44,596 bases of DNA, taken from the NCBI GenBank assembly GCA_001818675.1, contig MHJF01000011.1, positions 1 through 44,596 of the forward strand, in the 5' to 3' direction. Below, piece after piece: positions 7,695 through 38,754 of this stretch. The translations under genes were made by a program, and so were the position numbers. This stretch comes from Candidatus Harrisonbacteria bacterium RIFCSPHIGHO2_02_FULL_40_20 (lineage in GTDB: Bacteria > Patescibacteriota > Minisyncoccia > UBA6257 > WO2-44-18). Numbering within the stretch: the first letter of the stretch is position 1; every line of letters begins with the position of its first letter. The notes under the pieces are model-generated. The model was not told where the DNA came from. It made no database searches and saw only the letters and a program-made list of their open reading frames with translations.

Positions 7695-8255
7695 ATGATT
7701 ATTATTCTTCATAATATTAGGAGCTTATATAATGTGGGTTCAATTTTTCGGACTGCCGATGCGGCGGGCCCTGTTAGAAATAGCCCACTCCAAAGGCCCT
7801 CCTGGCGCGCTAGCGCGGGCGTAATTTCTAACGGGGCGGGCATAGAGAAATTATATTTATGCGGAATTACTCCAACTCCGATAGATAGGTTTGGGAAATT
7901 GCGACCGCAACTTGGAAAAGTTTCTTTAGGCGCGGAAAAAAGTGTTGCCTGGGAATATTGCAAGTCCATAGCGGCCTTAATTAAAAAATTAAAAAATCCG
8001 TCAGTAGGCGGAGGTTATAAAATTCTGGCAGTTGAGCAGTCTAAAAAATCTATTCCTTATTATAAAGTGGCCCTTCGACAAGTTCAGGGCAAAAATAAGC
8101 TGGCGCTTATTTTTGGCAATGAAGTTCGCGGTTTGCCGCCGTCAGTTTTGAAATTAGCAGACAAGATTTTGGAAATTCCAATGAGGGGCAAAAAGGAATC
8201 ATTGAATGTGGGTGTAGCATTTGGGATAGTGGCATTTCGTTTGCTTTATCCATAA
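7695..8255 (+). CDS. TrmH/SpoU family RNA methyltransferase carrying three in-frame palindromic insertions
   Basis: 'HNIRSLYNVGSIFRTADAAG' and 'FGNEVRGL...EIPMRGKKESLNVGVA' SPOUT motifs. Confidence 0.9.
   Translation: MIIILHNIRSLYNVGSIFRTADAAGPVRNSPLQRPSWRASAGVISNGAGIEKLYLCGITPTPIDRFGKLRPQLGKVSLGAEKSVAWEYCKSIAALIKKLKNPSVGGGYKILAVEQSKKSIPYYKVALRQVQGKNKLALIFGNEVRGLPPSVLKLADKILEIPMRGKKESLNVGVAFGIVAFRLLYP
7770..7835. mobile_element. 66-bp MITE-like element (CCTGTTAGAAAT...ATTTCTAACGGG) with a 6-bp target duplication GCGGGC, in frame in TrmH
   Basis: 12-bp terminal inverted repeat (1 mismatch); GCGGGC at 7764-7769 and 7836-7841; removal restores ADAAGIEK. Confidence 0.8.
7997..8012. repeat. Short palindrome TCCGTCAGTAGGCGGA in frame in TrmH (PSVGG)
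   Basis: Near-identical to TCCGTCAGCTGGCGGA in prfA (21700-21715, minus strand). Confidence 0.65.
8070..8090. repeat. 21-bp repeat GCCCTTCGACAAGTTCAGGGC in frame in TrmH (ALRQVQG)
   Basis: 19/21 identical to 10688-10708; GCCCT/AGGGC terminal stem. Confidence 0.75.
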
Positions 8256-8320
8256 ATTCTTTTCAGAAAACAATTTATTTTCCTCAATTTAAAAGTAAAG
8301 ATTTGGTGTATAATTAAATA

Positions 8321-8776
8321 ATGAAAAGATTTTTTGTTGTTGTTGGGCTTTTTGTCATATTTTTGATTGTTTCTGTTTTGTTTGTATCAGTAAGAGAAAC
8401 AAAAGAAGGGTTAACGGTTAGTAAGGTTAAGATTGGTTTAGCGGCTTTTGATGTGGAGGTGGCAGATACCGCTTTTTTGCAGACTAAGGGGCTTTCGGGC
8501 CGAGAATCATTGCCTAAAAATTACGGCATGCTTTTTATTTTTGATGACTTACAGAAACGCAGTTTTTGGATGAAAGATGTCCAATTTCCATTGGATTTTG
8601 TTTGGATAAGAGATAACAAGGTTGTTGGCATGGTTTATGGGGCAGAACCGGAAGTAGGCGATAATTTAACTATCTATGAATCTCCGGAGCTGGTGGATAT
8701 GGTTTTGGAAGTGAATGCCGGAGAGCTCACTAATTATGGGATTAAGATAGGAGACGCCGTTATTATAAATTTTTAA
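8321..8776 (+). CDS. DUF192 domain protein with an N-terminal membrane anchor
   Basis: 'VEVADT...GLSGRESL...GMLFIF...FWMKDV.FPLD...VLEVNAG' family signature. Confidence 0.85.
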   Translation: MKRFFVVVGLFVIFLIVSVLFVSVRETKEGLTVSKVKIGLAAFDVEVADTAFLQTKGLSGRESLPKNYGMLFIFDDLQKRSFWMKDVQFPLDFVWIRDNKVVGMVYGAEPEVGDNLTIYESPELVDMVLEVNAGELTNYGIKIGDAVIINF

Positions 8777-8798
8777 TTATTAGTATAATAAAGTTATT

Positions 8799-9839
8799 AT
8801 GGCAAAAATAGCAATCAATGGTTTTGGGAGGATCGGCCGATTATTTTTTCGGCAGGCTTTTGGTAAAAAAGGTTTAGAGATAGCGGCGATTAATGATTTG
8901 GGCGACATTGAAAATCTGGCGTATCTATTAAAATATGATTCGGTTTATCGGACTTATGATAAAGAAGTGAAATTTAAGCGCGATGCGGGTGGCGTTGGCG
9001 GAGAGCTGATAGTGGATGGAAAGAGCATTAAAGTTATTCAGGAGAAAGAGTTGGGGAAATTGCCGTGGAAGGAGATGAAAATTGATGTGGCAATAGAAGC
9101 AACGGGCGCTTTTGAATCTTTTGAAAAATCAGCGCCGCATGTAATTTCGGCAGGAGCCAAGAGGGTGGTGATTTCCGCTCCGGCGAAAGACGCAGAGGGC
9201 GTGGCTGGCGGACGGACTATTCTTTTGGGAGTGAACGAAGATCAATTTAAAACCTGTAAAGTTTCCTCTAATGGTTCTTGCACCACTAATGCTACTGCTC
9301 CGGTGGCGGCTATTATGCACGAAGCCCTTGGCATTCAAAAAGCTTTCTTAGCCTCTACCCATGGTTATACCGCCACTCAAAATTTAGTGGATGGGCCGAC
9401 CAGAGGAAAAGATTTTCGCCGCGGGCGCGCGGCGGCAGTGAATATCGCTCCGTCTTTTACCGGAGCGGCAATTTCTGTTACTCGGGGTATTCCGGAATTA
9501 GCAGGAAAGTTTGATGGTATTGCTTTGCGCGTTCCGATTGTTACGGGTTCTTTGGCGGATTTTACTTTTTTAACTAAGAAAAGAACTTCGGTTGAGGAAG
9601 TGAATGAAATTTTTAAGAAAGCGGCAAAATCCGCGCGTTGGAAAGGAATTTTGGGAGTAACGGAAGATCAATTGGTTTCTTCCGATATCATTGGCATGGA
9701 TTACGCCGCGATGGTGGATCTTCAATATACGAAAGTTGTTGATGGCGATTTAGTAAAAGTTCTGGCTTGGTATGACAATGAGTGGAGTTATGTTACTACG
9801 CTTGTTCAGCACGTAATGAAAGCGGCGGAAAATTTGTGA
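8799..9839 (+). CDS. gap: Glyceraldehyde-3-phosphate dehydrogenase, type I
   Basis: AINGFGRIGR, SNGSCTTN catalytic Cys, WYDNEW. Confidence 0.97.
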   Translation: MAKIAINGFGRIGRLFFRQAFGKKGLEIAAINDLGDIENLAYLLKYDSVYRTYDKEVKFKRDAGGVGGELIVDGKSIKVIQEKELGKLPWKEMKIDVAIEATGAFESFEKSAPHVISAGAKRVVISAPAKDAEGVAGGRTILLGVNEDQFKTCKVSSNGSCTTNATAPVAAIMHEALGIQKAFLASTHGYTATQNLVDGPTRGKDFRRGRAAAVNIAPSFTGAAISVTRGIPELAGKFDGIALRVPIVTGSLADFTFLTKKRTSVEEVNEIFKKAAKSARWKGILGVTEDQLVSSDIIGMDYAAMVDLQYTKVVDGDLVKVLAWYDNEWSYVTTLVQHVMKAAENL

Positions 9840-9985
9840 AGCCGCACATTATTATTTATTATCTTACTCTTTTTGGAGTTGCGGCGGTGGTTGCGGCGAG
9901 TTTTATAAATTTGGGCAAGGCGTTAGAGAACCAGTATTTAGCCGTAGAGCAGGCAAGGCGATTGGAAATTGAGTCCTCTAGGTAG
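9836..9985 (+). CDS. Possible small membrane protein (49 aa)
   Basis: GTG overlaps the gap stop (GTGA); one hydrophobic helix. Confidence 0.35.
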   Translation: MKPHIIIYYLTLFGVAAVVAASFINLGKALENQYLAVEQARRLEIESSR

Positions 9986-9992
9986 TGTAAAC

Positions 9993-10025
9993 TTGACTTA
10001 AAGATTATCTTAAGATAATCTTTAA
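9993..10025 (+). promoter_or_regulatory. TA promoter with a perfect 28-bp palindromic operator
   Basis: TTGACT -35 at 9993; TTAAAGATTATCTT|AAGATAATCTTTAA at 9998-10025 covers the spacer and -10 just upstream of the antitoxin ATG. Confidence 0.75.
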
Positions 10026-10027
10026 TT

Positions 10028-10282
10028 ATGACTAAAATAGCTGGACTAAAAGAGTTGCGGGAAAATACCGAATCTTATATCAAATCCATTCAAAAGGGAG
10101 ATTCTTTTGTGATCGTTAGGCGATCTAAGCCTGTATTTAAAATAACCCCGATTAGCGAAGAAGACGAAATCTGGGAAGATGTTGTGGATTTTACGAAAAT
10201 CAAGAAAGGCGGCCTTCCGTTGAAGGAGGCGCTTGTTAAGGTTCATTCATGGACAAGTTCGAAAAAGCATTCAAAAAGTTAA
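10028..10282 (+). CDS. Phd/YefM-type antitoxin
   Basis: 'GLKELRENTESYI..IQKGDSFVIVRRSKPVFKI' Phd-like N-terminus, upstream of a RelE-like gene. Confidence 0.8.
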   Translation: MTKIAGLKELRENTESYIKSIQKGDSFVIVRRSKPVFKITPISEEDEIWEDVVDFTKIKKGGLPLKEALVKVHSWTSSKKHSKS

Positions 10283-10491
10283 TTGTTCAAGAACAGCGTC
10301 AGTTAAAAGAAATCCTAGCCCAGTTAGAAGCTGGGTTTTTTAAAAATCTGGATATTAAGAAATTGAAGGGAACGGAGGATATTTTTCGAGTCCGTAAAGG
10401 TAATTTGAGGATTATTTATCAAAAAAGAGATGGCGAAGTATTTTTACTTAAGTTGAGCCGCCGTTCGGAGAAAACTTATCGGAACTTGTGA
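10249..10491 (+). CDS. RelE/ParE-family toxin
   Basis: 'DIKKLKG...FRVRKGNLRIIY...RR...Y' RelE signature. Confidence 0.85.
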   Translation: MDKFEKAFKKLIVQEQRQLKEILAQLEAGFFKNLDIKKLKGTEDIFRVRKGNLRIIYQKRDGEVFLLKLSRRSEKTYRNL

Positions 10492-10506
10492 TACAATAAG
10501 CCCATA

Positions 10507-10974
10507 ATGATTATATATTTAGCCACAGACCATGCGGGGTTTGAATTAAAAGAAAAAGTTAAGGATTGGCTTGTTAAAAATGGTTATGAAGTTAAAGACT
10601 TCGGTTCTTTTCAGTTAGATGAAAAAGATGATTATCCGGATTTTGTGAAAAAGGCGGCGGAAGCTGTGAGTGAATGCGAAAAAGGTAGCCCTTCGACAGG
10701 CTCAGGGCAAAAATGCCGTGCCGTCATTTTTGGCGGAAGCGGGCAGGGCGAGGCAATGGTGGCTAATAGATATAAAGGAGTGCGAGCCGCGGTTGTGTAT
10801 AAATATGACGAAGACATTATTAAGCTTTCGCGGGAACATAATGATGCGAATATTTTATCTTTAGGCGCGCGGTTTATCAAAGAAAAAGACGCGTTAAAAG
10901 CAGTAAAGTTATGGTTAGAAACGCCATTTTCCGGAGATGAGAGGCATATTCGAAGAATTTTGAAGATAGATTAG
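10507..10974 (+). CDS. rpiB: Ribose-5-phosphate isomerase B
   Basis: ATDHAGFELKE, DYPD, GSGQGEAMVANR, SREHNDAN, RHIRR. Confidence 0.95.
   Translation: MIIYLATDHAGFELKEKVKDWLVKNGYEVKDFGSFQLDEKDDYPDFVKKAAEAVSECEKGSPSTGSGQKCRAVIFGGSGQGEAMVANRYKGVRAAVVYKYDEDIIKLSREHNDANILSLGARFIKEKDALKAVKLWLETPFSGDERHIRRILKID
10688..10708. repeat. 21-bp repeat GCCCTTCGACAGGCTCAGGGC in frame in RpiB (SPSTGSG)
   Basis: Second copy of the 8070-8090 repeat, read in a different frame. Confidence 0.75.
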
Positions 10975-11164
10975 AGTTTGCGGCTAAAACATAAATTTTT
11001 TAAGAAATTTATGTTTGCCCGAACAATCGTTCCTGATTGTTTTAGGGAGAATTGACAAATTTTAGTTTTTTATATAATATATATTTAGTTTTTTAAATCT
11101 GGCGAGTCGAGCTTCAGCTAGTGGCTGAAGTTAGGCGAGCCGCAAAATAAAGGAGGTGACCCAA

Positions 11165-11773
11165 ATGGGGAACCTAATCAAGGAGACGCCGTACTCTGAA
11201 ATTACGGCAACGCTGGAGGCGCTTCAGGCTTTGGGTGTGGAGCGGCGGCATTTTGAGGCAGTCAGAAAAGATCCAACGTTAGCTTCATCAGTGGCACAGG
11301 CGATTATCGCCGGATATATTTTGGCAGACCCGATAAAAGCGATTTTCCCCACCTCCGTAGACTACTCCAAGTCTCTAGCCCAGATGATCAAATCTTGTAA
11401 TTTAAATTGGGTTAACCCCAACATCACCGAAGCTCACTTTCCCAAAGGGAAAGCTGGAGGTAAAGCAGAGTTCAACCTCGAATTCTTTCACCCCAACAAA
11501 GTGATGTCTTCCGATCAAATCTTGATCGAGATGAAGAATCGAAAACTCCGACCTGCCGAGCTTCCAATGGGTCTCGCTTTTGCAGAAAAATACCCCGAAG
11601 AACAGAGAAAGGGTCCCATAGTGATTTTTGGTTCTATGTGGCGGGGCTGGCGTGCCCATCGGCTCGTTCCGTATCTTTACAGTATTTCCGGCAGGCGTTA
11701 TCTGCGTCTGTATTGGTTTGAGGATGGCTGGGATGTGGGCTATTGGTTTCTTGCAGTGCGCGAGCCTGCCTGA
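11165..11773 (+). CDS. Hypothetical protein with a DGR-target-like (C-type-lectin-fold) C-terminus
   Basis: AGGAGG 8 nt before ATG 11165; C-terminal 'VPYL...RYLRLYWFEDGWDVGYWFLAVR' pattern; TTGACA at 11052 and terminator at 11815. Confidence 0.6.
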   Translation: MGNLIKETPYSEITATLEALQALGVERRHFEAVRKDPTLASSVAQAIIAGYILADPIKAIFPTSVDYSKSLAQMIKSCNLNWVNPNITEAHFPKGKAGGKAEFNLEFFHPNKVMSSDQILIEMKNRKLRPAELPMGLAFAEKYPEEQRKGPIVIFGSMWRGWRAHRLVPYLYSISGRRYLRLYWFEDGWDVGYWFLAVREPA

Positions 11774-11784
11774 CGGTAGGCAGG
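11765..11784. repeat. 20-bp palindrome CCTGCCTGACGGTAGGCAGG supplying the stop codon of the preceding gene
   Basis: Variant of CCTGCCTGCCGGCAGGCAGG at 17140 and 25899. Confidence 0.75.
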
Positions 11785-11814
11785 GTCTAGTCCAGTGGAC
11801 TGTTGGAAAAGTTA

Positions 11815-11849
11815 AGCCCGCAAGATGAAGATCTTGCGGGCTGTTTTTT
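11815..11849 (+). terminator. Intrinsic terminator
   Basis: 12-bp perfect stem agcccgcaagat-GAAG-atcttgcgggct followed by a T run. Confidence 0.8.
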
Positions 11850-11910
11850 AAATGATGAATTTCAAAAAGAACATTACTGTGTCGTTATGTTGGAGCGGAA
11901 GAATAGATAG

Positions 11911-11944
11911 ATCCAAGTGCTATCCTATAGGATAGCACTTGGAT
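11911..11944. repeat. Perfect 34-bp palindrome (REP-like)
   Basis: ATCCAAGTGCTATCCTA|TAGGATAGCACTTGGAT; the 18-bp core recurs at 21089-21106. Confidence 0.85.
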
Positions 11945-12021
11945 ATGCGAAGTTTTTATTATAAAGGAATTTTAGGTCTTAGTCCGGTAAGATGTCTCTC
12001 TAAGATGTTATACTTAATGAA

Positions 12022-12675
12022 ATGCAAATAATCCCAGCAATTAACACAAAAAATTTTAAAGAAGCGAAAAAACAGATAGAAATTGCGTCGCAAGTTGTGC
12101 CCGCTGGCGGAGTAATCCACATTGACGTCACGGATGGTAAATTTACTTCTAATATCACTTGGGGTGATCCACAAGAATTACAAGAACTGCTGACTAGTTA
12201 TAAATTATTGATTGCTAATTTTGAAATTCATTTAATGGTGAATAATCCTGAAGAGGTGATTGAAGATTGGGCAAAAACCAGATTATTCGGAAGAATTATT
12301 GTGCATTTAGAATCAATGAAAGATTCGGAGTATATTTTGAGTCGTTGCCGAAAATATGGGTCGGAACCGGTATTGGCGATTAATCCGACTACGGATGTGA
12401 AAAAATTAGAACCTTATTTAGATAAATTTCCGGCTTTTCAGATTTTGGCTGTTACGCCGGGTTTGGCAGGGCAAAAGTTTAATGTCGAAGTTATTCACAA
12501 AATCAAGTTTTTAAAGAAAGCGGCGCCGGGTGTTAAAATAGAAGTAGATGGCGGAATCAACTTAGAGACTGCTAAATTATGTAAGGAGGCAGGAGCGGAT
12601 ATAGTAGTGTCAGCGTCTTATATATTAAATAGCGATAATCCGAAGGAGGCATATGCTAAGTTAAGCGGGATTTAA
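12022..12675 (+). CDS. rpe: Ribulose-phosphate 3-epimerase
   Basis: IHIDVTDGKF, EIHLMV, VTPGLAGQKF, IEVDGGIN, AGAD. Confidence 0.93.
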   Translation: MQIIPAINTKNFKEAKKQIEIASQVVPAGGVIHIDVTDGKFTSNITWGDPQELQELLTSYKLLIANFEIHLMVNNPEEVIEDWAKTRLFGRIIVHLESMKDSEYILSRCRKYGSEPVLAINPTTDVKKLEPYLDKFPAFQILAVTPGLAGQKFNVEVIHKIKFLKKAAPGVKIEVDGGINLETAKLCKEAGADIVVSASYILNSDNPKEAYAKLSGI

Positions 12676-12790
12676 GTCAAAATTCAAAAGGTAAAATGCA
12701 AAAGTTCAATTCAAAATTCAAAAGCTTAATTGTGTTAATTTTTAATTTTAACTTGTAATTTTGACTTTTGATTTTTGAGTTTTGAATTTT
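12676..12790. repeat. Inverted pair of degenerate heptamer tracts (TCAAAAT-type / TTTTGAN-type)
   Basis: gtcaaaattcaaaaggtaaaatgcaaaa...ttttgacttttgatttttgagttttgaatttt forms a long imperfect hairpin between rpe and tkt. Confidence 0.7.
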
Positions 12791-13654
12791 ATGATTGATC
12801 CTATTCACGATAAAAAACTTAAGTATTTAGAAGAACTGGCGAATAAAGTTCGTCAGTCTATTATTGAGATGCTGGTAGAGGCGGGTTCGGGACACTCGGC
12901 TGGGCCGTTGGGAATGGCGGATATTTTTACGGCTTTATATTTTCATGTTTTAAAGCATAATCCGAAAAAACCAGATTGGCCGGATCGGGATCGTTTAGTT
13001 TTATCCAACGGCCATATTTGTCCGGTGCGATATGCAGCTATGGCTCACGCGGGATATTTTCCTTTGGCAGAACTAAAAACTTTGCGGAAAATCAATTCCC
13101 GTTTGCAGGGGCATCCCCATAGAACAGCTTTGCCCGGAGTGGAAACCACTTCTGGCCCTTTGGGTTCGGGGCTTTCACAAGCCGTGGGTATGGCGTTGGC
13201 GGCGAAGATGGATAAAAAGAAATATCAAACTTATTGTATTGTCTCGGATGGGGAGCATGATTCCGGCAATACTTGGGAGGCAGTAATGTTCGCCGCTAAA
13301 TACAGATTGAATAATCTGACCGCGATTATGGATCGGAACAATATCCAAATAGACGGGTATACGGAGGATATTATGCCCTTAGAATCTTTGCGCAAGAAAT
13401 ATGAATCTTTTAACTGGCATGTTTTAGAAATTGACGGACATAGCATTGAGCAGTTTGTGGACGCGGTGAATGAAGCGCATGCTATTTATGAAGCGCCGAC
13501 TATGATTATTGCCCATACGATTCCGGGCAAAGGCGTAAGTTTTATGGAGCGGGATTATTTGTGGCATGGCAAACCGCCGACTAAAGAACAGGCCGAGGCG
13601 GCTTTAAAAGAACTGCGGACATTGCAGGAAAAAATACAAAGTAAGCATAAATGA
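12791..13654 (+). CDS. Transketolase, N-terminal (TPP-binding) subunit
   Basis: SGH, RDRLVLSNGH, LQGHP, SGPLGSG, SDGEHDSG...N motif, TIPGKG, WHG. Confidence 0.95.
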   Translation: MIDPIHDKKLKYLEELANKVRQSIIEMLVEAGSGHSAGPLGMADIFTALYFHVLKHNPKKPDWPDRDRLVLSNGHICPVRYAAMAHAGYFPLAELKTLRKINSRLQGHPHRTALPGVETTSGPLGSGLSQAVGMALAAKMDKKKYQTYCIVSDGEHDSGNTWEAVMFAAKYRLNNLTAIMDRNNIQIDGYTEDIMPLESLRKKYESFNWHVLEIDGHSIEQFVDAVNEAHAIYEAPTMIIAHTIPGKGVSFMERDYLWHGKPPTKEQAEAALKELRTLQEKIQSKHK

Positions 13655-14649
13655 TTAATTCGGACGCAAAATTAAATTCTAAAATTTTTGATGCTGATGT
13701 TGAACAACGCGCCACTCGCGAGGGTTATGGAGAGGGTTTGCTTATTGCCGGCGCGGAAAATCCGAATGTGGTGGTGTTGAGCGCTGACCTTACCGAGTCC
13801 ACGCGAGCAGAAGCTTTTTCTAAAAAGTTTCCCGACCGATTTTTTGAAATGGGAGTAGCGGAACAAAATATGGCGGCGGTTGCGGCTGGCTTAGGCGTTT
13901 CCGGAAAAATCCCTTTTATTTCTTCTTATTCTACTTTTTCTCCGGGAAGAAATTGGGAGCAGATCAGAACTACCATTTGTTATAACGATTCTAATGTGAA
14001 AATTGCCGCGCATCATGCCGGATTAATGACTGGCCCGGATGGCGCCACTCATCAAAATAATGAAGATATTGCGATTATGCGGGTTTTGCCGAATATGCGG
14101 GTTTTTGTTCCCTGCGATGCGCTGGAAGCAAAAAAAGCGACGATTGCCGCAGCCAAAATTACCGGGCCGGTTTTCATCCGTTTTAGCCGTGAAAAAAGCC
14201 CTATTATAACAACTGAAGAAACGTCGTTTGTTCCCGGGAAATCAATTTTGGTTTGGAAGTCGGTTAAGCCGCAGGTTGCAATCATTGCTTGCGGATTTTT
14301 GCTTCATAATGCTTTAAAAGCGGCCGCCGAATTAGAAAAAGAAAAAATTTATTCTTTGGTTATCAATATGTCGACCATTAAGCCATTGGATGAAAAGGCG
14401 GTTGTGGATGCGGCGAAAAAATGCGGAGCAGTGGTGACAGTAGAAGAGCATCAGATTTATGGCGGGCTTGGCGGAGCAGTGGCGGAAGTTTTAGCAAGAA
14501 AATATCCTGCGCCTATGGAATTTATTGGCTTGCAGAATACTTTTGGCGAATCCGGCGCGCCAAAGGATTTGGTGGAAAAATATGGCATGGGAGTCAAGGA
14601 TATTAAAGAAGCGGTAGAAAAAGTTTTAAAGAGAAAGAGTACGGAATAA
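13651..14649 (+). CDS. Transketolase, C-terminal subunit
   Basis: SADL, GVAEQNM, GPDGATHQ, TIKPLD, VTVEEH; 4-nt overlap with the N subunit. Confidence 0.95.
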   Translation: MINSDAKLNSKIFDADVEQRATREGYGEGLLIAGAENPNVVVLSADLTESTRAEAFSKKFPDRFFEMGVAEQNMAAVAAGLGVSGKIPFISSYSTFSPGRNWEQIRTTICYNDSNVKIAAHHAGLMTGPDGATHQNNEDIAIMRVLPNMRVFVPCDALEAKKATIAAAKITGPVFIRFSREKSPIITTEETSFVPGKSILVWKSVKPQVAIIACGFLLHNALKAAAELEKEKIYSLVINMSTIKPLDEKAVVDAAKKCGAVVTVEEHQIYGGLGGAVAEVLARKYPAPMEFIGLQNTFGESGAPKDLVEKYGMGVKDIKEAVEKVLKRKSTE

Positions 14650-14724
14650 ATAAAACTATTTTTCGCTTTGTATTGCGGTGCGAGTTTTTTGTTAGTAAAA
14701 ACGGATGTGGTAAAATTGATAGTA

Positions 14725-15750
14725 ATGAAAGATATAATCGCTATTGGTTCAGCCACTAGAGATAATTTTTTGGAGTCGGATTATCAGATGATTGATTGGC
14801 CGGATACGCCTTCAAAAAAGGCCTTGGTTTTTCCCTTTGCGGAAAAGATTGGCGTTAAAAAGTTTTATTCTACTATTGGTGGAAATTCGGCTAATGCTAG
14901 CGTAACTTTTGCTAGGCAAGGTTTTAAAACTGCGTGTTTCGCGAAATTAGGCAAAGATCTAGCGGGGAAAGAATTGATTAGTTATCTTAAAAAAGAGGGC
15001 GTGGCTACTAAATTGGCGGTTTATTCCGACGAGAAGCCGACGGCTTACTCTGTTTTATTATTAAGCGGCGGCGAACGGACAATTTTGGGATACCATGGCG
15101 CCTCTGATACCGTAGTTTTAGAAGATTTTAATTTGAAAAAATTAAAAAGTCGTTGGTGGTATTTGTCTTTAGCCGGAGAATCTGACAAGGTTTATCCAGA
15201 TTTAATAAAATTTGCCCGCGAAAATAAAATTAAAGTCGCTTTTAATCCTAGCGGCCATCACATTAAGCATCGTCGCCAGGAGATTTTAGATTCTTTAAAG
15301 GATTTATCTTTTTTGGTTTTAAATGATGGCGAGGCTGCCGAGTTAGTCGGAATATCTTTTGAGAAAGAAAAAGAAGTTTTTAAAAAATTGGATAATTTGA
15401 TGCCGGGTATTGTGGCGGTTACTAAGGGTCCTGCCGGGGTGGCGGTTTCTGACGGAAAAAATATTTATCACGCCGGAGTTTTTAAGGAAAAAATTATCGC
15501 TGATAGAACAGGAGCTGGAGATTCCTTCGGTTCTGGTTTTGTGGCCGGATTAATGAATTTTGAACTAAGCACTAAGAACTTAGAACTTAGAACAGAAGCA
15601 ATTCAATACGCCATCCGTTTGGCAACTGCTAATGCTACTTCTGTTGTAGAGCATATCGGCGCCACCGAAGGAATTTTGACGAGAGAGCAGTTTGAGCAAG
15701 ATCCAAGATGGAAAGATTTAAATATACAGGTGGAAAGTTTATCCCGCTAG
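14725..15750 (+). CDS. PfkB-family carbohydrate kinase
   Basis: GGNSAN, GERTI, DRTGAGDSFGSGF PfkB signature. Confidence 0.9.
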   Translation: MKDIIAIGSATRDNFLESDYQMIDWPDTPSKKALVFPFAEKIGVKKFYSTIGGNSANASVTFARQGFKTACFAKLGKDLAGKELISYLKKEGVATKLAVYSDEKPTAYSVLLLSGGERTILGYHGASDTVVLEDFNLKKLKSRWWYLSLAGESDKVYPDLIKFARENKIKVAFNPSGHHIKHRRQEILDSLKDLSFLVLNDGEAAELVGISFEKEKEVFKKLDNLMPGIVAVTKGPAGVAVSDGKNIYHAGVFKEKIIADRTGAGDSFGSGFVAGLMNFELSTKNLELRTEAIQYAIRLATANATSVVEHIGATEGILTREQFEQDPRWKDLNIQVESLSR

Positions 15751-15860
15751 AGACAATTAAACTTTAATTATGTATTTAATGAATAAACAACTAGCGTTAG
15801 TCGACGTTAAGCAATCAAGATGCGGATGCGCTTTTTTAAGCGCATCCTGTCTCTAACGGG
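15743..15860. mobile_element. 118-bp MITE-like element (CCCGCTAGAGACA...TGTCTCTAACGGG) at the pfkB/next-gene junction
   Basis: 13-bp TIR with 1 mismatch; internal hairpin ggatgcgctt..aagcgcatcc; provides the pfkB TAG and abuts the next ATG. Confidence 0.75.
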
Positions 15861-17129
15861 ATGAATGGGTACGCAGAACATATCGCTAAAATTTTACGGA
15901 CTGATAAGCATGAGATAGAAAATTTAGAACGCGGATTAGAAAAAGCTACCGGTAAAGTCGGGCTTTTAAAAATGATTGTAGAAACTGATGAAGAATTGTT
16001 GAGCGATAGATTAAGCATTCTTGGTTTGTCGCGCTCATCCTCCGCGGTTGAGGTTTATGACGCTTTAATTAGTAAAATTGAGGCGGATGATTTGGCGCTT
16101 TTAAAATATATAGGATTAGAACGAAAAGATACTGCTGCCGCCGCTCAAAAAACCGTAGATTTTGTGAAGAGAATCCATCCGCCTTTTATGGGGTACTTTT
16201 TAAAAAAAGAAAAAGCGAAACAATTTTTGATTGCCGAACCGCCTAAGAGAGTTTTAGCGGCTTTGGGTTATAAGTATGTGGAGGAAATGCTGCAAAAAGA
16301 AGATTTATTGGAGGTTTACAGCGCTTTAAGATTTTTAGAGGGAGGCGAATGGCTGAATAATGTTTTTTTTAAACAGTATGAAACTTTGCACACGGATGAT
16401 TTTGAAGAACGGCAAATTGAAGTACGGGCCTTGCATCCCAAATGGGCGGCGGCAGCGGAAAAATTTGTCGCTAAAAAATATCATAACGTCAGTCATTTGA
16501 AAGAGCTGGGCGTGATTTTTGTCATTCCGGTTTTTTTGGGGATTTCGGGAGAGACTTTGCGGGTAGTCAGTTTGTTATTGCATTATCTCAACGAAGTTCA
16601 ATTTTATTCGGGGCTTTTTCAAGATTTTAGAAAAGACAATGTTTCTTTTTCGGACAAAGTGATTTCTTTATTAAGGGGCGACGTGATTGAGCATCGCCTT
16701 CCGGAACAGCTAATGGAGGCGGCGCGCCCCAGATTTTTAGTGATCCAGCGTTATCTGGCTAAGGATGATGAAAATGATTGGCGGCTGATTGAGCCACATA
16801 TAAATCCGGAAGCGATTCATTGGCAGAAAGCGGAAGATGAGATTGTTCGGGTTAATGAAAAAATTCTTGATTTTAAAAACGGATTGGAATTTTGGCGGGA
16901 CCTTGGTTCCGTTGGCGGATTTTTTAAGAGTGAAATTGGCAATGATATTCTAGTAAGCTTCAATCTGGTGGATACAGTAATGGCATTGGTAAAAAGAAAA
17001 GAATTAATCAAGTATCTTTATCATCATCAAGAGGCGATGTGGAATAAAATTTTTGCCTATTACTTTGGCATGGGAAAGCTAGAAGAGATGAGTCGGAAGC
17101 ATATTTTGAAGGGATGGTTTGAGGTATAA
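15861..17129 (+). CDS. Hypothetical protein (422 aa) inside the sugar-phosphate cluster
   Basis: Long ORF with host-like codon usage between pfkB and fba; His/Glu motifs (YHNVSHLKELG, LHYLNEV, EPHINPEAIHW); no family recognised. Confidence 0.85.
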   Translation: MNGYAEHIAKILRTDKHEIENLERGLEKATGKVGLLKMIVETDEELLSDRLSILGLSRSSSAVEVYDALISKIEADDLALLKYIGLERKDTAAAAQKTVDFVKRIHPPFMGYFLKKEKAKQFLIAEPPKRVLAALGYKYVEEMLQKEDLLEVYSALRFLEGGEWLNNVFFKQYETLHTDDFEERQIEVRALHPKWAAAAEKFVAKKYHNVSHLKELGVIFVIPVFLGISGETLRVVSLLLHYLNEVQFYSGLFQDFRKDNVSFSDKVISLLRGDVIEHRLPEQLMEAARPRFLVIQRYLAKDDENDWRLIEPHINPEAIHWQKAEDEIVRVNEKILDFKNGLEFWRDLGSVGGFFKSEIGNDILVSFNLVDTVMALVKRKELIKYLYHHQEAMWNKIFAYYFGMGKLEEMSRKHILKGWFEV

Positions 17130-17139
17130 TAATCGCAAA

Positions 17140-17159
17140 CCTGCCTGCCGGCAGGCAGG
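17140..17159. repeat. Perfect 20-bp palindrome CCTGCCTGCCGGCAGGCAGG inserted in a TAATCGC..AATAATGC repeat unit
   Basis: Same context as the 25899 copy; empty versions at 18052-18097 (minus strand) and 29995-30042. Confidence 0.8.
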
Positions 17160-17177
17160 AATAATGCAAATCTTATT

Positions 17178-18041
17178 ATGACTTTGAAACAAATAATTGA
17201 AGATGCGGAACAGCGCGGCATTGCGTTGGGGCATTTTAATATCTCGGAATTTGTTGCTTTAAAAGCTATTTTAGAGGGCGCTAGCCAATTAAATGTTCCT
17301 ATTATAATTGGGGTTTCCGAGGGCGAGCGAGAATTTATTGGCATTAAGGAGACAGTAGCCTTAGTGAGGGCTTTCCGTGAAGAGTATTCGGTGCCGATAT
17401 TTTTAAATGCTGATCACACTCATTCTTTAGAGGCGGTAGAGGAAGTTGCTAAAGCTGGCTTTGACGCAGTTCTTTTTGACGCGAGTAAAGAGCCATTAGA
17501 GAAAAACATTAAATTAACTAAAGAAGCGGTATTGCGGGCTAAGATTTTAAATCCGAATATTTTAGTGGAAGGAGAAATTGGATACATTGGCGCTTCTTCC
17601 AAGATTTTACAAGAATTACCCAAAGATATTTCTTTAGAGGAAAAAGATTTGCCGACGGCTGAAGAAGTGGCAGAGTTTGTTCAAAAAACCAAGGTAGATT
17701 TATTAGCGCCGGCAGTAGGTAATATTCATGGCATTTTGGCGAATATTCCCAATCCCCGTTTGAATATAAAAAAGGTTCGGGAAATGAAGCAGGCAGCCAA
17801 AATTCCCTTAGTTTTGCATGGCGGTTCGGGCATTGCTGATGACGATTTTAGAGTTGCTATTAAAGCGGGTATTTCCACTATTCATATTAATACTGAAATT
17901 AGAGTGGCATGGCGTAAGGGAGTAGAAATGGGATTAAAGCGGAATCGCGACGAGGTAGCGCCTTATAAGATTCTTTCGTCGGCCTTGGAGGGCATCAAAG
18001 AGATTGTTTTGAATAGATTAAGAATTTTTAATGGTTTGTAG
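17178..18041 (+). CDS. fba: Class II fructose/tagatose-bisphosphate aldolase
   Basis: LNADH, VEGEIG, AVGNIHG, PLVLHGGSG, IHINTE. Confidence 0.92.
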   Translation: MTLKQIIEDAEQRGIALGHFNISEFVALKAILEGASQLNVPIIIGVSEGEREFIGIKETVALVRAFREEYSVPIFLNADHTHSLEAVEEVAKAGFDAVLFDASKEPLEKNIKLTKEAVLRAKILNPNILVEGEIGYIGASSKILQELPKDISLEEKDLPTAEEVAEFVQKTKVDLLAPAVGNIHGILANIPNPRLNIKKVREMKQAAKIPLVLHGGSGIADDDFRVAIKAGISTIHINTEIRVAWRKGVEMGLKRNRDEVAPYKILSSALEGIKEIVLNRLRIFNGL

Positions 18042-24157: not shown

Positions 24158-25763
<1,606 letters not shown>

Positions 25764-25860
25764 TTAATATCGATAATTTATAAATTTATTTTATGAATTT
25801 GGAAAAAGGTTTTGGCCGAGGAGCCTTAAGTCTCGGTTCGGTTGCCTAAAGCAACTGTAG

Positions 25861-33617: not shown

Positions 33618-33622
33618 AAGTA

Positions 33623-33663: not shown

Positions 33664-33668
33664 ATTGA

Positions 33669-33920: not shown

Positions 33921-34077
33921 TTACCACTCCTTTTCATATAAAATGAGCAGATTGAATCTTATAATAACAAAGAATATTTAATTTTGCCAGGTAGTAGAAA
34001 CTTGACAAACTATCAATAATAATATATTTTATTGATTGGTACTTTCAGAACGTAGTTTTAGTTCAAGGAGGTGGCTA

Positions 34078-34356: not shown

Positions 34357-34370
34357 GAAAGGAGAATAGA

Positions 34371-34520: not shown

Positions 34521-34553
34521 GAGTAAATTGAAATCCGGCACTAAGCCGGATTT

Positions 34554-35069: not shown

Positions 35070-35151
35070 TGATTGTATTTTAATATAATTTCACAATATT
35101 TTCTATTTTACTTGAACATATTTTATTCACGTTTTATACTAGACTACATAT

Positions 35152-35676: not shown

Positions 35677-35684
35677 AGTTTATG

Positions 35685-35821
35685 CCCGGTGCTACAACTT
35701 TGATGGTGTTTTCAGCAGAAAACACAAAAGTATCTGTCCCGGACAAAGACTTATAAATAATCTATATTTATTAAAACAATCAAGGTTGAATCTAAATTTA
35801 TGTCAAAGTTGTAGCACCGGG
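35685..35821. mobile_element. 137-bp MITE-like element with 19-bp perfect TIR and a TATG target duplication at the hisS start codon
   Basis: CCCGGTGCTACAACTTTGA ... TCAAAGTTGTAGCACCGGG; TATG at 35681-35684 and 35822-35825. Confidence 0.85.
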
Positions 35822-35822
35822 T

Positions 35823-37103: not shown

Positions 37104-37107
37104 CGCA

Positions 37108-37440
37108 ATGTATTCTTGTTTATTTTGTAAAATAGCCAATAAGCAAATTTCATCGGAAATTGTTTTTGAAAATGACAGCCTTCTGGCTTTTAAAGACATA
37201 CGGCCTTCGGCTCCGGTGCATTATTTGATAGTGCCTAAAGAGCATATTCAATCCATTGCTCATTTAAAAGATAATCACCGCGGCGTACTTTCTGATTTGG
37301 TTTTTTCTGCTAAAGCTCTAGCTTTGAAATTAGGATTGGGGGGTTATAAATTAGTTTTTAATGTCGGGCGTGAAGGCGGCCAAATCATTGACCATTTGCA
37401 TCTTCATTTGCTGGGCGGTTGGACAAATAATGAGAAATGA
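37108..37440 (+). CDS. HIT-family nucleotide-binding protein
   Basis: CLFCKI, HYLIVPKEH, GQIIDHLHLHLLGG. Confidence 0.93.
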   Translation: MYSCLFCKIANKQISSEIVFENDSLLAFKDIRPSAPVHYLIVPKEHIQSIAHLKDNHRGVLSDLVFSAKALALKLGLGGYKLVFNVGREGGQIIDHLHLHLLGGWTNNEK

Positions 37441-37457
37441 GATAATATATTTTAAAT

Positions 37458-37679
37458 ATGCCTATCGAAGTTCGTAAAAAGGAAAATGAAAGTCCAAGTT
37501 ATCTTATTAATCGCTTTACCAAAAAGATGCAGCAAAGCGGTGTTTTGCGTGAAGTAAAAAATAGGCGTTTTTATAAACGCACTGTTAATAAAAGCCGCAG
37601 AAGGGTGAAGGCTTTGCATCGCGAAGAAAAAAAGAAAGAATTTTTGAAAGCCAAGAAATTAGGAATCACTTTAAGTTAA
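37458..37679 (+). CDS. rpsU: 30S ribosomal protein S21
   Basis: EVRKKENES...RFTKKMQQSGVLREVKNRRFY; hit-rpsU-yqeY synteny. Confidence 0.85.
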   Translation: MPIEVRKKENESPSYLINRFTKKMQQSGVLREVKNRRFYKRTVNKSRRRVKALHREEKKKEFLKAKKLGITLS

Positions 37680-37768
37680 TATTTAATCTCTGACATTTAA
37701 CATTGTGACCGACTAGCAGACATATTATAGTTAGGTGTCAATTGTTAGGTGTTCATTGTTAAAAAACT

Positions 37769-38233
37769 ATGTTGAAGCAACGAGTTCTCAGCGACATTAA
37801 AGATGCTATGAAGTCAGGCGACCAAAATAAGGTCGGGGTTTTGCGTTTAGTAAGTTCGGCTATTAAAAATAAAGAGATTGAAATGAAACCTAAACTTGGA
37901 GATTCAGAAATGCCAGAAGATATGGTTTTAGCGGTTATAATGATGGAAGCAAAAAAACGAAAAGAAGCAATAGAAATCTTTAAACAAGGCGGGCGTAATG
38001 ATTTGGCAGAAAAAGAGCAGATGGAATTGGCAATTATTCAAGGTTATTTGCCCCAGCAATTGAGCAAGGAAGAAGTAGAAAAGGAAATTGAAAAGATTTT
38101 AGGAGACAATCTTTTAGCTGGTAATTTTGGATTAGCGATGAAAGAGGTAATGAAATCTTTGAAGGGGAAGGCCGACGGATCTTTGGTCGGGGAGATTTTA
38201 AAGAAAAAATTTAGCAGCAACGAATCCCGTTAG
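37769..38233 (+). CDS. GatB/YqeY domain protein
   Basis: IKDAMKSGD...LR...AIKN.EI, KKRKEAIEIF...GRNDLAEKE..E, YLPQQLS, GKADG. Confidence 0.93.
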   Translation: MLKQRVLSDIKDAMKSGDQNKVGVLRLVSSAIKNKEIEMKPKLGDSEMPEDMVLAVIMMEAKKRKEAIEIFKQGGRNDLAEKEQMELAIIQGYLPQQLSKEEVEKEIEKILGDNLLAGNFGLAMKEVMKSLKGKADGSLVGEILKKKFSSNESR

Positions 38234-38340
38234 AGGCAACTCAAATATATTATTTTTTTTGGATATACTTTTATTAAAAAATATTTTTATTAAAAAAACG
38301 GTCATATTACGGTCGCCTCTGGCGACCTGCCTCTAACGGG
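38226..38340. mobile_element. 115-bp MITE-like element (CCCGTTAGAGGCA...TGCCTCTAACGGG) at the yqeY/ybeY junction
   Basis: 13-bp perfect TIR; flanks ACGAAT/ATGAAT (6-bp duplication, 1 mismatch); internal hairpin ggtcgcc-tct-ggcgacc. Confidence 0.85.
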
Positions 38341-38754
38341 ATGAATAGAGTTGTCGTCTTATCATTAAAGAAAAAATTTAAAAAGCTGGAATTTAAAATT
38401 CAGACCCTAGGTAGAGAATTATTGAAAGCGGAAAAGAAAGACGGATTTTATTTTGAAGTTTATTTGGTAGATAGGGCTTTTATGAATAAAAATGTATTGG
38501 CTTTTCCTGCCCCGCGTTTTTTTAACAGACCGGATATTAAACAAAAAAATCTCGGAGAAATTTATCTAAACCCGGACTATATAAGAAATGAGAAATTAGA
38601 AATTAGAAATAAAGAATTGAATTTTGATAAAAAGTTGCGATACTTGCTTATTCACGGATTTTTGCACCTTTTGGGCTATGGCCACAAGAAGAAGGGTGAT
38701 ACAATTATTATGCAAAGAAAGGAAGCTAAGCTTCTTTCTAAATTCAGGAATTAA
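38341..38754 (+). CDS. ybeY: rRNA maturation endoribonuclease YbeY (shortened)
   Basis: NVLAFP, LGEIYL, IHGFLHLLGYGH, MQRKE. Confidence 0.85.
   Translation: MNRVVVLSLKKKFKKLEFKIQTLGRELLKAEKKDGFYFEVYLVDRAFMNKNVLAFPAPRFFNRPDIKQKNLGEIYLNPDYIRNEKLEIRNKELNFDKKLRYLLIHGFLHLLGYGHKKKGDTIIMQRKEAKLLSKFRN

Follow-up and report, generated by a model that had tools for sequence, protein, structure and literature searches.

Three short repeats interrupt or adjoin protein-coding genes in the window, which is the whole 44,596-nt stretch of DNA analysed here. They probably derive from a mobile cassette of ~275 bp whose only gene encodes a GIY-YIG nuclease; this nuclease would mobilise the cassette, and translation would be relayed through the inserted element. 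The GIY-YIG cassette is common in ultra-small groundwater bacteria. No published account of such a start-codon GIY-YIG cassette turned up in full-text literature searches.

The element family occurs in multiple copies, its distribution over genomes is patchy, and orthologous sites lack it. The first-pass annotation had proposed a non-autonomous, MITE-like element with three copies, and all three are present on the forward strand. Copy 1 (7768..7837) is a 70-bp derivative composed of a core (7770-7835) with an outer GC on each side. Copy 2 (15741..15862; core 15743-15860) and copy 3 (38224..38342; core 38226-38340) are MITEs with an outer AT on each side. The proposal holds, with multiple copies, inverted-repeat ends, and orthologous sites that are empty in relatives. 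The end motif CCYGYTAGA occurs seven times in the window, where 0.80 is expected and the highest count among 100 shuffles is 4; six of the seven matches are the ends of copies 1-3. The genome-wide search for paired ends that the annotation had suggested gave 28 left-type and 31 right-type motifs forming 32 end pairs. Removal of five composite or false pairs leaves 27 copies in the 667-kb CPR-type source genome. The family pattern is present in 15 of 41 related genomes, and a reversed control pattern has no matches. An allele without the element was also sought in contigs of four other DNA runs; none was seen there, and no movement event.

The annotation had further suggested looking for a longer copy with the same ends around an ORF. 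Such copies occur in many genomes, and in the source genome one lies at positions 17542-17814 of contig C19. There, the ends of the family enclose an 86-codon nuclease gene that matches Pfam GIY-YIG with E = 1.5e-16 and 60.9 bits (cut-off 22.6 bits). At its two ends the cassette has inverted repeats of 15 bp, made up of an outer AT followed by CCCGTTAGAGACA; throughout the family, the 15-bp repeat includes an outer AT, GT/AC or GC. The same inverted repeats surround nine of ten relatives' nuclease ORFs of at least 60% identity. Among 62 complete loci from other species, the closing inverted repeat is at least 10 bp long in 54 and of the CCGTTAG type in 42, and in 27 the nuclease TGA overlaps a downstream ATG or GTG that opens a long ORF. 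No enzyme other than the GIY-YIG nuclease was found enclosed by the family ends. The statement that the window holds no cognate transposase is to be supplemented: a cognate protein, the 86-aa GIY-YIG nuclease within the same ends, lies outside the window. The sole full-length copy of the source genome has no left ATG and no matching duplication (AATAGT vs ATGATT).

Copies 2 and 3, whose interiors had been called unrelated, are in fact collinear with each other and with the full-length cassette. The left ~100 nt and right ~26 nt are common to all, and ~152 nt of the cassette are missing between the hairpin arms in both copies. MITEs of ~116 bp retain the repeats, the first ~25 nuclease codons, and a hairpin assembled from two distant complementary arms. 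As judged by alignment, they are internal-deletion derivatives of the GIY-YIG cassette, and copy 1 is shorter still. Sequence and folding place the subterminal hairpin of copy 2 at 15824..15847 (+; GGATGCGC / GCGCATCC), where it matches two distant complementary arms in the full-length cassette, and that of copy 3 at 38311..38327 (+; GGTCGCC / GGCGACC). Copy 2 also contains a 28-codon mini-ORF (15770..15856, +; MYLMNK...SASCL), an open frame collinear with the cassette and left over from the nuclease N-terminus. The stop codon, TAA at 15854-15856, falls within the right repeat, 4 nt upstream of the orf422 ATG. The corresponding frame of copy 3 is also open, although it lacks an ATG.

Insertion duplicates 2 bp, not 6. 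The flanking 2 bp are identical in 75 of 106 distinct copies, compared with 38.1 +/- 3.3 for re-paired flanks (maximum 51 in 5,000), and the remaining 31 lack an identical duplication. The duplicated pair is mostly GA or GG, and identity holds also for TG, AA, AT, TC, and GT. Outer dinucleotides are complementary in 74/106 copies. The preferred target is RT|GR|A (R = A or G), which corresponds to the five bases that open an ORF. At the right junction stands ATG in 72 copies and GTG in 15 (87/106 together), and copies ending in AC...GT convert ATG to GTG there. Together, the terminal AT or GT of the element and the duplicated G rebuild a start codon immediately at the right end. Of the 24 copies that are 100 bp or longer, 18 adjoin an ATG opening at least 100 codons, against a background of 20.6% of 3,225 ATGRA sites (P = 1.7e-8). 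The annotation had placed copies 2 and 3 at gene junctions, which stands, with the correction that the element lands on start codons and rebuilds them, sparing the host gene. This concentration on start codons would reflect a sequence preference together with selection against insertions elsewhere. An upstream gene that overlaps the old start is stopped by the left-repeat TAG at most three codons in. As had been claimed, the ends carry a stop in one frame and are open in another: the frame from the duplicated ATG reads CCC GTT AGA and is open, whereas xCC CGT TAG stops, which accounts for the present termination of pfkB and yqeY.

At both gene junctions in the window, the upstream gene does end at the left-repeat TAG and the ATGAAT directly after the right repeat does start the next gene. 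The pfkB-family kinase gene (14668..15750, +) ends at the TAG of copy 2 (15748-15750), and orf422 (15861..17129, +), which has no Pfam family, begins with the ATG immediately 3' of the copy 2 core, so that the right outer AT of the element is the AT of its start codon. On the left side the duplicate is no longer present (GTTTAT). In all 11 relatives fetched, the orf422 orthologue follows pfkB; the junction is empty in ten and carries an in-frame scar in one (L156). At copy 3, yqeY (37769..38233, +) ends at the left-repeat TAG at 38231-38233, and the start codon of ybeY (38341..38754, +) is the terminal AT of the element plus the duplicated G. The left duplicate reads ACGA-AT, a change from ATG to ACG that is synonymous in yqeY. 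Alignments of ybeY orthologues begin at residues 1-4, and the yqeY-ybeY junction is empty in 13/13 relatives. The empty alleles that the annotation had proposed to look for thus exist at both sites.

Copy 1 lies in frame in a SpoU/TrmH-family methyltransferase gene (7695..8255, +; Pfam PF00588, E = 3.9e-28), as had been claimed. The insertion adds 72 bp, or 24 codons, and the host frame remains open without stops. The insert falls between RTADAAG and (V/I)EKxYLCG, and the PF00588 match begins downstream of it, at profile position 38. The 24 codons are missing from 12/12 aligned TrmH orthologues, the TrmH matches of relatives split around the insert, and in genome L015 the target is uninterrupted. 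GCGGGC is present on both sides and had been called a 6-bp duplication. It is better read as a 2-bp duplication, GG at 7766-7767 and 7838-7839, plus an outer dinucleotide borne by the element. It is very improbable that ribosomes skip copy 1 by hopping between duplicated codons. Such programmed translational bypassing occurs in phage T4 gene 60 and the yeast mitochondrial 'byps'. Copy 1 does sit between identical GCG GGC codons with a stable stem-loop, and its 24 extra residues fall in the first conserved motif of TrmH, where they might do harm. The copy is nevertheless in frame and stop-free, neither of which bypassing needs; no stop follows the would-be take-off codon, and nothing similar is seen at other copies.

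The window copies fold into a closing stem stacked on the subterminal GC hairpin, with z = -2.7, -8.3, and -8.3 for copies 1, 2, and 3. Within each copy, the inner closing stem and the hairpin remain complementary, while their sequences vary from copy to copy. The nuclease ORF of full copies extends across the right repeat, its TGA overlapping the host ATG; the remnant mini-ORF of MITEs terminates at the right-repeat TAA, with 4 nt separating it from the host ATG. An open sense frame of at least 25 codons is present in 29/35 copies (median 36; shuffle mean 13.6), and an antisense frame of that length in 10/35 (median 13). The mini-ORF begins with ATG in 26/35 copies and is missing in six. Its openness is not significant for single copies, as 7-33% of shuffles equal the copies with an open frame, and is partly inherited from the parent nuclease gene. 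Beginning at the left ATG with the retained host initiation region, ribosomes would read on into the element, open its stem, and then re-initiate at the rebuilt ATG. Such a relay would explain why these insertions are tolerated. Most copies are co-oriented with the downstream gene; three or four in the source genome are inverted relative to the adjoining gene, so the relay cannot be needed in every case.

The very stable fold (z = -8.3), the complementarity kept despite variable sequence, and the predominant co-orientation could also mean that copies are kept as structured RNA, whether as dsRNase processing sites, 5' translational regulators, or removed segments, mobility being secondary or ancient. 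Removal from transcripts has been reported for insertions in CPR rRNA genes (PMC11270868). This explanation is improbable. No Rfam family is found at the gathering threshold, the host genes are unrelated and share no regulon, and three or four copies have an inverted orientation. Close relatives lack the element at these sites, which argues against a conserved function tied to a locus, and RNA removal would not need the 72 bp of copy 1 to keep the host frame open.

Movement by the nuclease would fit what is seen of the protein. It belongs to the SLX1/UPF0213 structure-selective lineage and is a stand-alone domain of 86 residues, in which Y5, Y16, G18, R24, H30, and E50 are invariant across 35 homologues. 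Seven of the 35 are annotated as starting at the left duplicated ATG (MNPVRD...), and the nuclease family comprises more than 1,100 protein clusters. The predicted fold is nearest to UPF0213, At-HIGLE, and Slx1. A predicted homodimer scores 0.65 (best control 0.00), a mark reached by 20 of 30 solved pairs and one of 23 single chains; its runs agree 100%, the partner pLDDT is at least 84, and the interface includes E50. At-HIGLE is active as a homodimer and cleaves cruciforms (PMC9071465). Homodimeric SLX1 structures have been solved, the fungal one being inhibitory, so the score may come from memorised structures of this kind or depict an inactive form. As a dimer, the nuclease would mobilise the cassette and, in trans, the MITEs by making cuts at the base of the repeat-formed hairpin or cruciform and in the target that are staggered by 2 nt, as is typical of GIY-YIG enzymes. 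Because a hydrolytic 86-aa nuclease cannot join DNA, a separate host activity is needed, and host ligation or repair would complete the insertion.

GIY-YIG enzymes are hydrolases for which we know of no strand-transfer activity, and the source genome has an rve-type ORF, a Y1/HUH ORF, and a tyrosine recombinase. A conventional transposase acting in trans, or host recombination or replication slippage at the hairpin, might move cassette and MITEs, the nuclease being cargo or a homing-type, break-making helper. MITE-length copies are present in eight of the ten genomes whose nuclease ORF reaches at least 60% identity, compared with 7/31 of the others, which lack a close nuclease copy; these genomes are related and not independent. 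Such a mover is nonetheless unlikely. The rve ORF lacks the family ends, the Y1 ORF lies between 34-bp REP-like palindromes of its own, and a search of this genome, which is 96% complete, for DDE_Tnp_1, TnpB-type, and resolvase families found none. The end motif accompanies the nuclease across phyla, down to ~50% protein identity, and more distant nuclease lineages have closing repeats of their own, the pattern expected if ends and protein co-evolve. GIY-YIG enzymes leave 2-nt 3' extensions (PMC2988022), a stagger equal to the 2-bp duplication.

Several known systems resemble the family in part. Correia elements (CREE/NEMIS) of Neisseria are likewise short, multi-copy units with terminal inverted repeats, a 2-bp duplication, and long hairpins, found at gene boundaries and co-transcribed with neighbours. 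They target TA, and we know of no cognate protein for them. The present family differs in its full-length form with a GIY-YIG nuclease, its start-codon target rebuilt by the element, and a remnant ORF in a position suited to translational coupling. Rickettsia palindromic elements, to which the annotation had compared the family, are palindromic and tolerated in frame within genes of a reduced genome. The likeness is apt for copy 1, the only in-frame copy in the window, but not for the bulk of the family on start codons, and no associated nuclease gene is known to us. IS200/IS605 with PATEs and REP/REPIN-RAYT systems are also very small mobile units with a sequence-specific target, apparently central hairpins, and short non-autonomous copies outnumbering the coding copy. 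They work through a Y1 HUH enzyme and covalent intermediates and lack both terminal inverted repeats and a duplication, whereas the ends of this family surround a GIY-YIG hydrolase and its insertion duplicates 2 bp; the Y1 gene of the source genome is separate from the family.

T4 Seg proteins and I-TevI, free-standing or intron-encoded, are selfish GIY-YIG nuclease genes like the cassette, and the 2-nt stagger fits its 2-bp duplication (PMC2988022). Homing enzymes have DNA-binding domains and copy themselves by recombination into a single cognate allele; inverted repeats and duplications play no part there. The cassette has both, occupies many unrelated sites, and encodes a bare 86-aa domain with a fold nearer to SLX1 than to I-TevI. 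By sequence and by fold, the encoded protein is best matched by SLX1, At-HIGLE, and UPF0213 (YhbQ-type) proteins. Like prokaryotic Slx1-family members, it consists of a minimal stand-alone domain (PMC1564403), and its predicted homodimer resembles that of the cruciform cutter At-HIGLE (PMC9071465). These relatives are regarded as enzymes of repair or recombination that are encoded by fixed chromosomal genes, and in the literature searched no mobile, repeat-bounded cassette is described for them.

The seventh CCYGYTAGA match in the window, detected by motif search of window and genome, lies inside pfkB at 14958..14966 on the reverse strand. It has no partner and is probably a chance match or a relic.

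The three repeat copies in the window lie at 7770-7835 (copy 1, in the TrmH gene), 15743-15860 (copy 2, between pfkB and orf422) and 38226-38340 (copy 3, between yqeY and ybeY), where the first-pass annotation had placed them. They are MITEs, the gene-less short copies of a ~275-bp cassette that encodes an 86-aa GIY-YIG nuclease, lands on start codons, duplicates 2 bp and rebuilds the codon. Pfam assigns the host genes to the SpoU/TrmH, PfkB, YqeY and YbeY families; orf422 has no family. The TAG of the left repeat terminates pfkB (copy 2) and yqeY (copy 3), and ATGAAT begins directly after the right repeat of both copies. In the predicted folds, with z-scores of -2.7, -8.3 and -8.3 for copies 1, 2 and 3, a closing stem of 14-15 bp stacks directly on the subterminal hairpin described earlier. 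At the gathering threshold, 16S rRNA is the sole Rfam match in the window.

The end motif CCYGYTAGA occurs seven times in the window against 0.80 expected and a maximum of four in 100 shuffles. Six of these are the ends of copies 1-3, and the seventh (14958-14966, minus strand) is an unpaired match inside pfkB. The source genome (G000), whose contig C11 is the window, comprises 667,488 bp in 35 contigs, with 40% G+C and 96% completeness. Two end motifs have 28 and 31 matches in it, and the family is multi-copy. Allowing one mismatch per end gave 32 end pairs, from which five were left out as composite or false (contig and position C6:1421, C19:9335-9560, C23:6579-6908, C30:11802-12179 and C28:1190). 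The remaining 27 copies, with terminal inverted repeats of 13-15 bp, include 23 of 104-121 bp, single copies of 60, 66 and 99 bp, and one of 273 bp. The family shows the features of a MITE: it is short and multi-copy, carries inverted repeats, duplicates its target, has a coding form with identical ends and is missing from orthologous sites. The original idea of a non-autonomous inverted-repeat element is therefore supported by the copy number, the closing repeats and the empty sites in relatives, with refinements.

The longer copy with the shared ends lies at C19:17542-17814 and encloses an 86-codon ORF. This ORF matches the Pfam GIY-YIG family (PF01541) with E = 1.5e-16 and 60.9 bits, the cut-off being 22.6 bits. 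The right repeat lies within the nuclease ORF and codes for its conserved C-terminus (...RFLSLTG), and the TGA of the nuclease overlaps the ATG of a 451-codon ORF downstream. The first-pass annotation had called the interiors of the copies unrelated, which fails for copies 2 and 3, as both are collinear with the full-length cassette. The alignment takes in the left repeat with the first ~100 nt, up to ...ACGGCCGA..TACGG and the first hairpin arm, and resumes for the last ~26 nt. The ~152 nt absent from the MITEs, corresponding to the C-terminal two-thirds of the gene, lie between two 13-nt complementary arms, and these arms are the subterminal hairpin of the MITE. Because of this collinearity and the position of the gap between the arms, copies 2 and 3 are deletion derivatives of a single cassette type, each from a sublineage of its own. 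A shorter derivative is copy 1, whose repeat resembles ...GTTAGAAAT lineages of other genomes.

Alignment of relatives revealed empty alleles at all three window sites. The 24 codons in TrmH are absent from 12 of 12 aligned orthologues, an alignment that omits a 13th fetched locus (L025) whose match started at residue 3. One relative (L015) has the unbroken target GATGCGGCGGGC|GTGGAG. In a wider TrmH search, the matches in relatives fell into two parts, residues 1-25 and ~48-185, which adjoin in the DNA. The insert lies between RTADAAG and (V/I)EKxYLCG, the first conserved SpoU motif, and the Pfam match of the G000 protein begins only downstream of it. Copy 1 was correctly described as an in-frame insertion that leaves TrmH open and adds 24 codons; its supposed perfect 6-bp duplication is in fact 2 bp (GG), and the 70-bp element plus GG gives 72 bp. 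A structure model of TrmH with the insert, built from an alignment of 13 sequences, has a pLDDT of 34.5, too low to interpret. The yqeY-ybeY junction is element-free, and short or overlapping, in 13 of 13 relatives' loci. For pfkB-orf422, synteny is kept in all 11 loci, and ten of the 11 junctions are element-free (-1 to 55 nt). The remaining locus, from another genus (L156, on G004:C8), carries an element scar at the copy-2 site before the orf422 orthologue: the ATGAAT duplicate and 12 nt from the left repeat are still present, and the right end is degenerate, its ATG having become AAG. The scar seems to be read in frame, so that the gene starts at the left ATG with six extra residues. The same relative has a MITE of the family directly 3' of the stop codon of its TrmH orthologue (L024, G004:C8:9859-9975), and the TrmH neighbourhood has been struck at different positions in G004 and G000. 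In assemblies of four DNA runs (X8, X9, X6 and X10), most contigs covering window positions 7000-17500 end at elements. One X6 contig spans copy 1 unaltered, and no contig joint omits an element, in data where contigs mostly break at these sites.

The apparent direct repeat at the flanks is ATGRAT. The final two bases of the left flank are near-invariant, and base six of the right flank varies freely (A 19, T 19, C 8, G 3; n=49). The outer dinucleotides vary jointly on both sides (AC...GT, GC...GC), and copies with AC...GT ends keep ATGR at the left junction and have GTGR at the right. Joint variation and invariance mark the outer dinucleotide as element-borne; the repeats are therefore 15 bp and the duplication 2 bp. 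A duplication of 6 bp or 5 bp is ruled out by the free sixth base on the right and by the change of ATG to GTG in the AC...GT copies. Junction statistics were drawn from 106 distinct copies (26 in G000 and 80 elsewhere). The 2 bp are identical in 75 of 106, compared with 38.1 +/- 3.3 for randomly re-paired flanks (maximum 51 in 5,000 trials), and this identity extends to TG, AA, AT, TC and GT dinucleotides. The host bases 5' of the duplication are AT in 63/106 and GT in 11/106, and the base 3' of it is A in 84/106, giving RT|GR|A as the preferred target. The right junction reads ATG in 72 copies and GTG in 15. GIY-YIG endonucleases are described in one report as leaving a 2-nt 3' stagger (PMC2988022), and the 2-bp duplication can be likened to it.

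Three loci from other genomes with AC/GC...GT ends (L081, L082 and L133) abut TAA with AA duplicated, for example GATAA|AC...GT|AAATAAG. For some AC/GC...GT lineages, the favoured sites may be AT|AA|A at stop codons or between genes, not start codons. Tandem or nested copies occur at G000:C23:6579-6908, G000:C19:9335-9560, L024:1940-2142, L046 and L047. They include two MITEs 94 bp apart, both with ATGGAT flanks, one copy inside or beside another, and full cassettes abutting the right end of an earlier copy. The rebuilt start codon can apparently serve as a new target. An attC-like or dif-like recombination site was also considered and was dropped on visual inspection, as the order of core motifs is the reverse of that in attC and the targets are without binding arms.

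Among the 24 G000 copies of at least 100 bp, the right-flank ATG opens at least 100 codons in 15, and three more abut such an ATG in inverted orientation. The genome has 3,225 ATGRA sites; 20.6% of them lead into 100 or more open codons, and 5.5% are the earliest start in their ORF. Against the lenient 20.6% background, 18 of 24 has a binomial P of 1.7e-8. The starts of ybeY and orf422 are true N-termini, since their orthologues align from residues 1-4. The left ATG is less conserved, at 33-36 of 49 per position versus 44-47 of 49 at the right; in copy 3 it has become ACG, a synonymous change in yqeY. Hits at non-ATG sites, ATTGA for example, show that the preference for a target sequence is real. 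The concentration at start codons may reflect active targeting, selection or both. In so compact a genome, most insertions elsewhere would be lethal.

As proposed at first pass, the ends stop one frame and leave another open: CCC GTT AGA is open from the left ATG, and the frame of an overlapping upstream gene runs into TAG no more than three codons on. At four places in G000, both window junction sites included, the left repeat in this way ends an upstream ORF longer than 150 codons. The start codon is rebuilt at the right junction. MITEs also retain a mini-ORF, the remnant of the nuclease gene. In MITE-sized copies, the sense frame that ends at the right-repeat TAA has 25 or more open codons in 29 of 35 (median 36), compared with 10 of 35 (median 13) for the antisense frame to the same TAA and a mean of 13.6 for shuffled interiors; this openness is partly inherited from the parent gene, its significance per copy is weak, and six of the 35 have no open frame. 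The mini-ORF ATG falls at element position 20-27 in 26 of 35, and the peptides diverge among about ten sublineages. Three or four copies are inverted relative to the abutting gene. At G000:C1:10457-10573, the host ATG after the MITE is lost (ATAAAAAG), and one open frame runs from the mini-ORF ATG across the entire element into the host ORF. The protein would carry an N-terminal extension of ~34 residues of element sequence.

These arrangements suggest a route for translation. The element would take over the initiation region of the host gene for its own ORF. Seven of 35 database homologues of the nuclease are annotated from the left ATG via the repeat (MNPVRD...), and in those copies the host initiation region is therefore in frame with the nuclease. 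Ribosomes starting at the retained host leader would translate into the element and open its closing stem. They could then re-initiate at the rebuilt ATG, through the TGA/ATG overlap in full copies or, in MITEs, through TAA followed by ATG 4 nt on. A Shine-Dalgarno sequence supplied by the element is rejected, as such motifs precede 92 of 468 long G000 ORFs versus 13% of random 18-mers and occur before the left ATG in only two of 15 element-bearing genes. The 16S rRNA gene lies at 24158-25764, and its 3' end (25740-25764, Rfam limits) reads ...GGATTATTTACATT and lacks the anti-Shine-Dalgarno motif CCTCC. The organism seems, from these sequences, to initiate translation without Shine-Dalgarno pairing, and for that reason ribosomes would otherwise have difficulty reaching a start codon buried beside a 15-bp stem.

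The nuclease conserves Y5, Y16, G18, R24, H30 and E50 in all 35 homologues, presumably the canonical catalytic positions of the GIY-YIG superfamily, and their invariance indicates purifying selection on the family. Among solved structures, UPF0213 BH0048 (1zg2) is its best relative by sequence (E = 2e-7), and an SLX1 homologue matches weakly (E = 0.12). The predicted model has a pLDDT of 91.4. Foldseek places 1zg2, At-HIGLE 7wme (TM 0.66, rmsd 2.1 A) and Slx1 entries at the top, and below them I-TevI 1ln0 (TM 0.51) and UvrC 1yd6. By sequence and predicted fold, the enzyme is of the SLX1/UPF0213 lineage, not that of UvrC or I-TevI. A homodimer is predicted with a score of 0.65 versus 0.00 for the best control, with 100% agreement between runs and a partner pLDDT of at least 84; the 0.65 mark is reached by 20 of 30 solved pairs and one of 23 single chains. 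This result may reflect likeness to solved SLX1-lineage homodimers, of which the fungal one is inhibitory. At-HIGLE is reported to be active as a homodimer and to linearise a cruciform plasmid (PMC9071465). The predicted dimer, its likeness to At-HIGLE and the Y-shaped fold of the ends suggest that structure may be what the enzyme recognises in the element.

Of 41 related genomes, 15 contain the MITE-length pattern, and a reversed control pattern has no matches. Small nuclease-related ORFs are found in 38 of the 41, with a maximum of nine in one genome, and the same repeats surround nine of ten relatives' ORFs with at least 60% identity to the nuclease. MITE-length copies are present in 8 of 10 genomes with a close nuclease ORF versus 7 of 31 others, a comparison among related and thus non-independent genomes. 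More distant nuclease lineages have other closing repeats, up to 21-24 bp. These lineages include G000:C29:374-619 and G000:C33:2209-2382, each with its own inverted repeat; a third extra small GIY-YIG ORF lies at G000:C6:123-344. Two of these three are closed by inverted repeats (24 bp, containing the ORF's ATG, and 16 bp), and one lies between direct repeats. A nuclease gene within a closing stem is a recurrent design, with unrelated repeat sequences. A scan of species-representative genomes found 80 loci in many Patescibacteria groups and also on contigs labelled Planctomycetota, Omnitrophota (one complete genome), Verrucomicrobia, Proteobacteria and Bacteroidota. After 18 truncated loci were left out, 54 of 62 are closed by an inverted repeat of 10 bp or more, and the repeat is of the CCGTTAG type in 42. 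The TGA overlaps the ATG or GTG of a long downstream ORF in 27 of 62, and a start codon lies at -4 to +15 of the stop in 40. More than 1,100 protein-database clusters match at E <= 1e-10, named merely 'GIY-YIG nuclease family protein' or 'putative endonuclease'.

Several known systems resemble the cassette in part. I-TevI/Seg homing genes share the GIY-YIG catalytic domain with its conserved residues, but the 86-aa cassette protein is this domain only and lacks a separate DNA-binding domain. Its score with the group I intron endonuclease model, 22.1 bits, is below the 56-bit cut-off. Homing genes occupy one cognate site without repeats or duplication, whereas the cassette is found at many host genes unrelated to one another, carries repeats and duplicates 2 bp. 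IS200/IS605-PATE and REP-RAYT systems use a Y1 HUH enzyme and have neither inverted repeats nor duplication, whereas this element has both and a GIY-YIG ORF. The earlier comparison with Rickettsia palindromic elements applies to copy 1 only, the 72-bp palindromic insert in frame in TrmH; the likeness is in the in-frame insertion, and the host here is a CPR bacterium, not Rickettsia. The window was said to hold no cognate transposase, and a candidate cognate protein, the 86-aa GIY-YIG nuclease, is encoded elsewhere in the genome, at C19. DDE_Tnp_1, TnpB-type and resolvase families have no match in G000. The genome has one rve ORF without such ends, one Y1/HUH ORF and one tyrosine recombinase, none of them inside the element's ends.

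In the full-text literature, exclusive of subscription journals and supplements, no repeat-bounded GIY-YIG cassette or start-codon-targeting bacterial MITE was found, and a prior description is possible. Prokaryotic Slx1-family members are described as minimal stand-alone domains, with a lone fusion to a SPOUT methyltransferase, in a report that asks whether other GIY-YIG members are molecular parasites (PMC1564403). Another lists a GIY-YIG protein among genes transferred from Patescibacteria (PMC12455944). A tentative reading, which we hold somewhat short of probable, is that prokaryotes have, in this cassette, a DNA transposon of a new class. The one protein it encodes would be a minimal SLX1/UPF0213-type GIY-YIG nuclease, acting as a dimer that cuts the hairpin or cruciform of its own repeats and RT|GR|A with a 2-nt stagger, and the element would parasitise start sites and hand ribosomes on by stop/start overlap. 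Were the 86-residue SLX1-type nuclease the mobilising enzyme, this transposon class would be new, GIY-YIG would join the DDE, HUH, serine, tyrosine and Cas1 transposase types, and at ~275 bp the cassette would rank among the smallest autonomous mobile elements. Many of the stand-alone GIY-YIG proteins of bacteria, a large orphan family, would then have selfish mobility as their role, a testable function for more than 1,100 clusters known by their label only. The family also illustrates how dozens of insertions can be accommodated in a streamlined 0.67-Mb genome with almost no intergenic space: the element restores the start codon, gives an overlapping gene upstream its stop and seems to hand ribosomes on. 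In CPR annotation, it accounts for false N-termini and split Pfam matches, because gene callers start at the duplicated ATG. The defined target sequence and tiny size could also interest tool builders.

The sole Y1 ORF of G000 (C6:3871-4101; IS200/RAYT-like, 240 aa) has a 34-bp REP-like palindrome (...TCTATGGACATCCGATGTCCATAGA...) on both sides and is a second, unrelated hairpin-repeat system. The window contains no tRNA genes. At 12680-12790, between two ORFs, lies an A/T-rich palindromic intergenic stretch (TCAAAATTCAAAAG... / ...CTTTTGATTTTTGAGTTTTGA), where metagenome contigs pile up to ~10x the depth of the neighbouring sequence with many loose ends. It may be a further dispersed repeat or simply low-complexity sequence.
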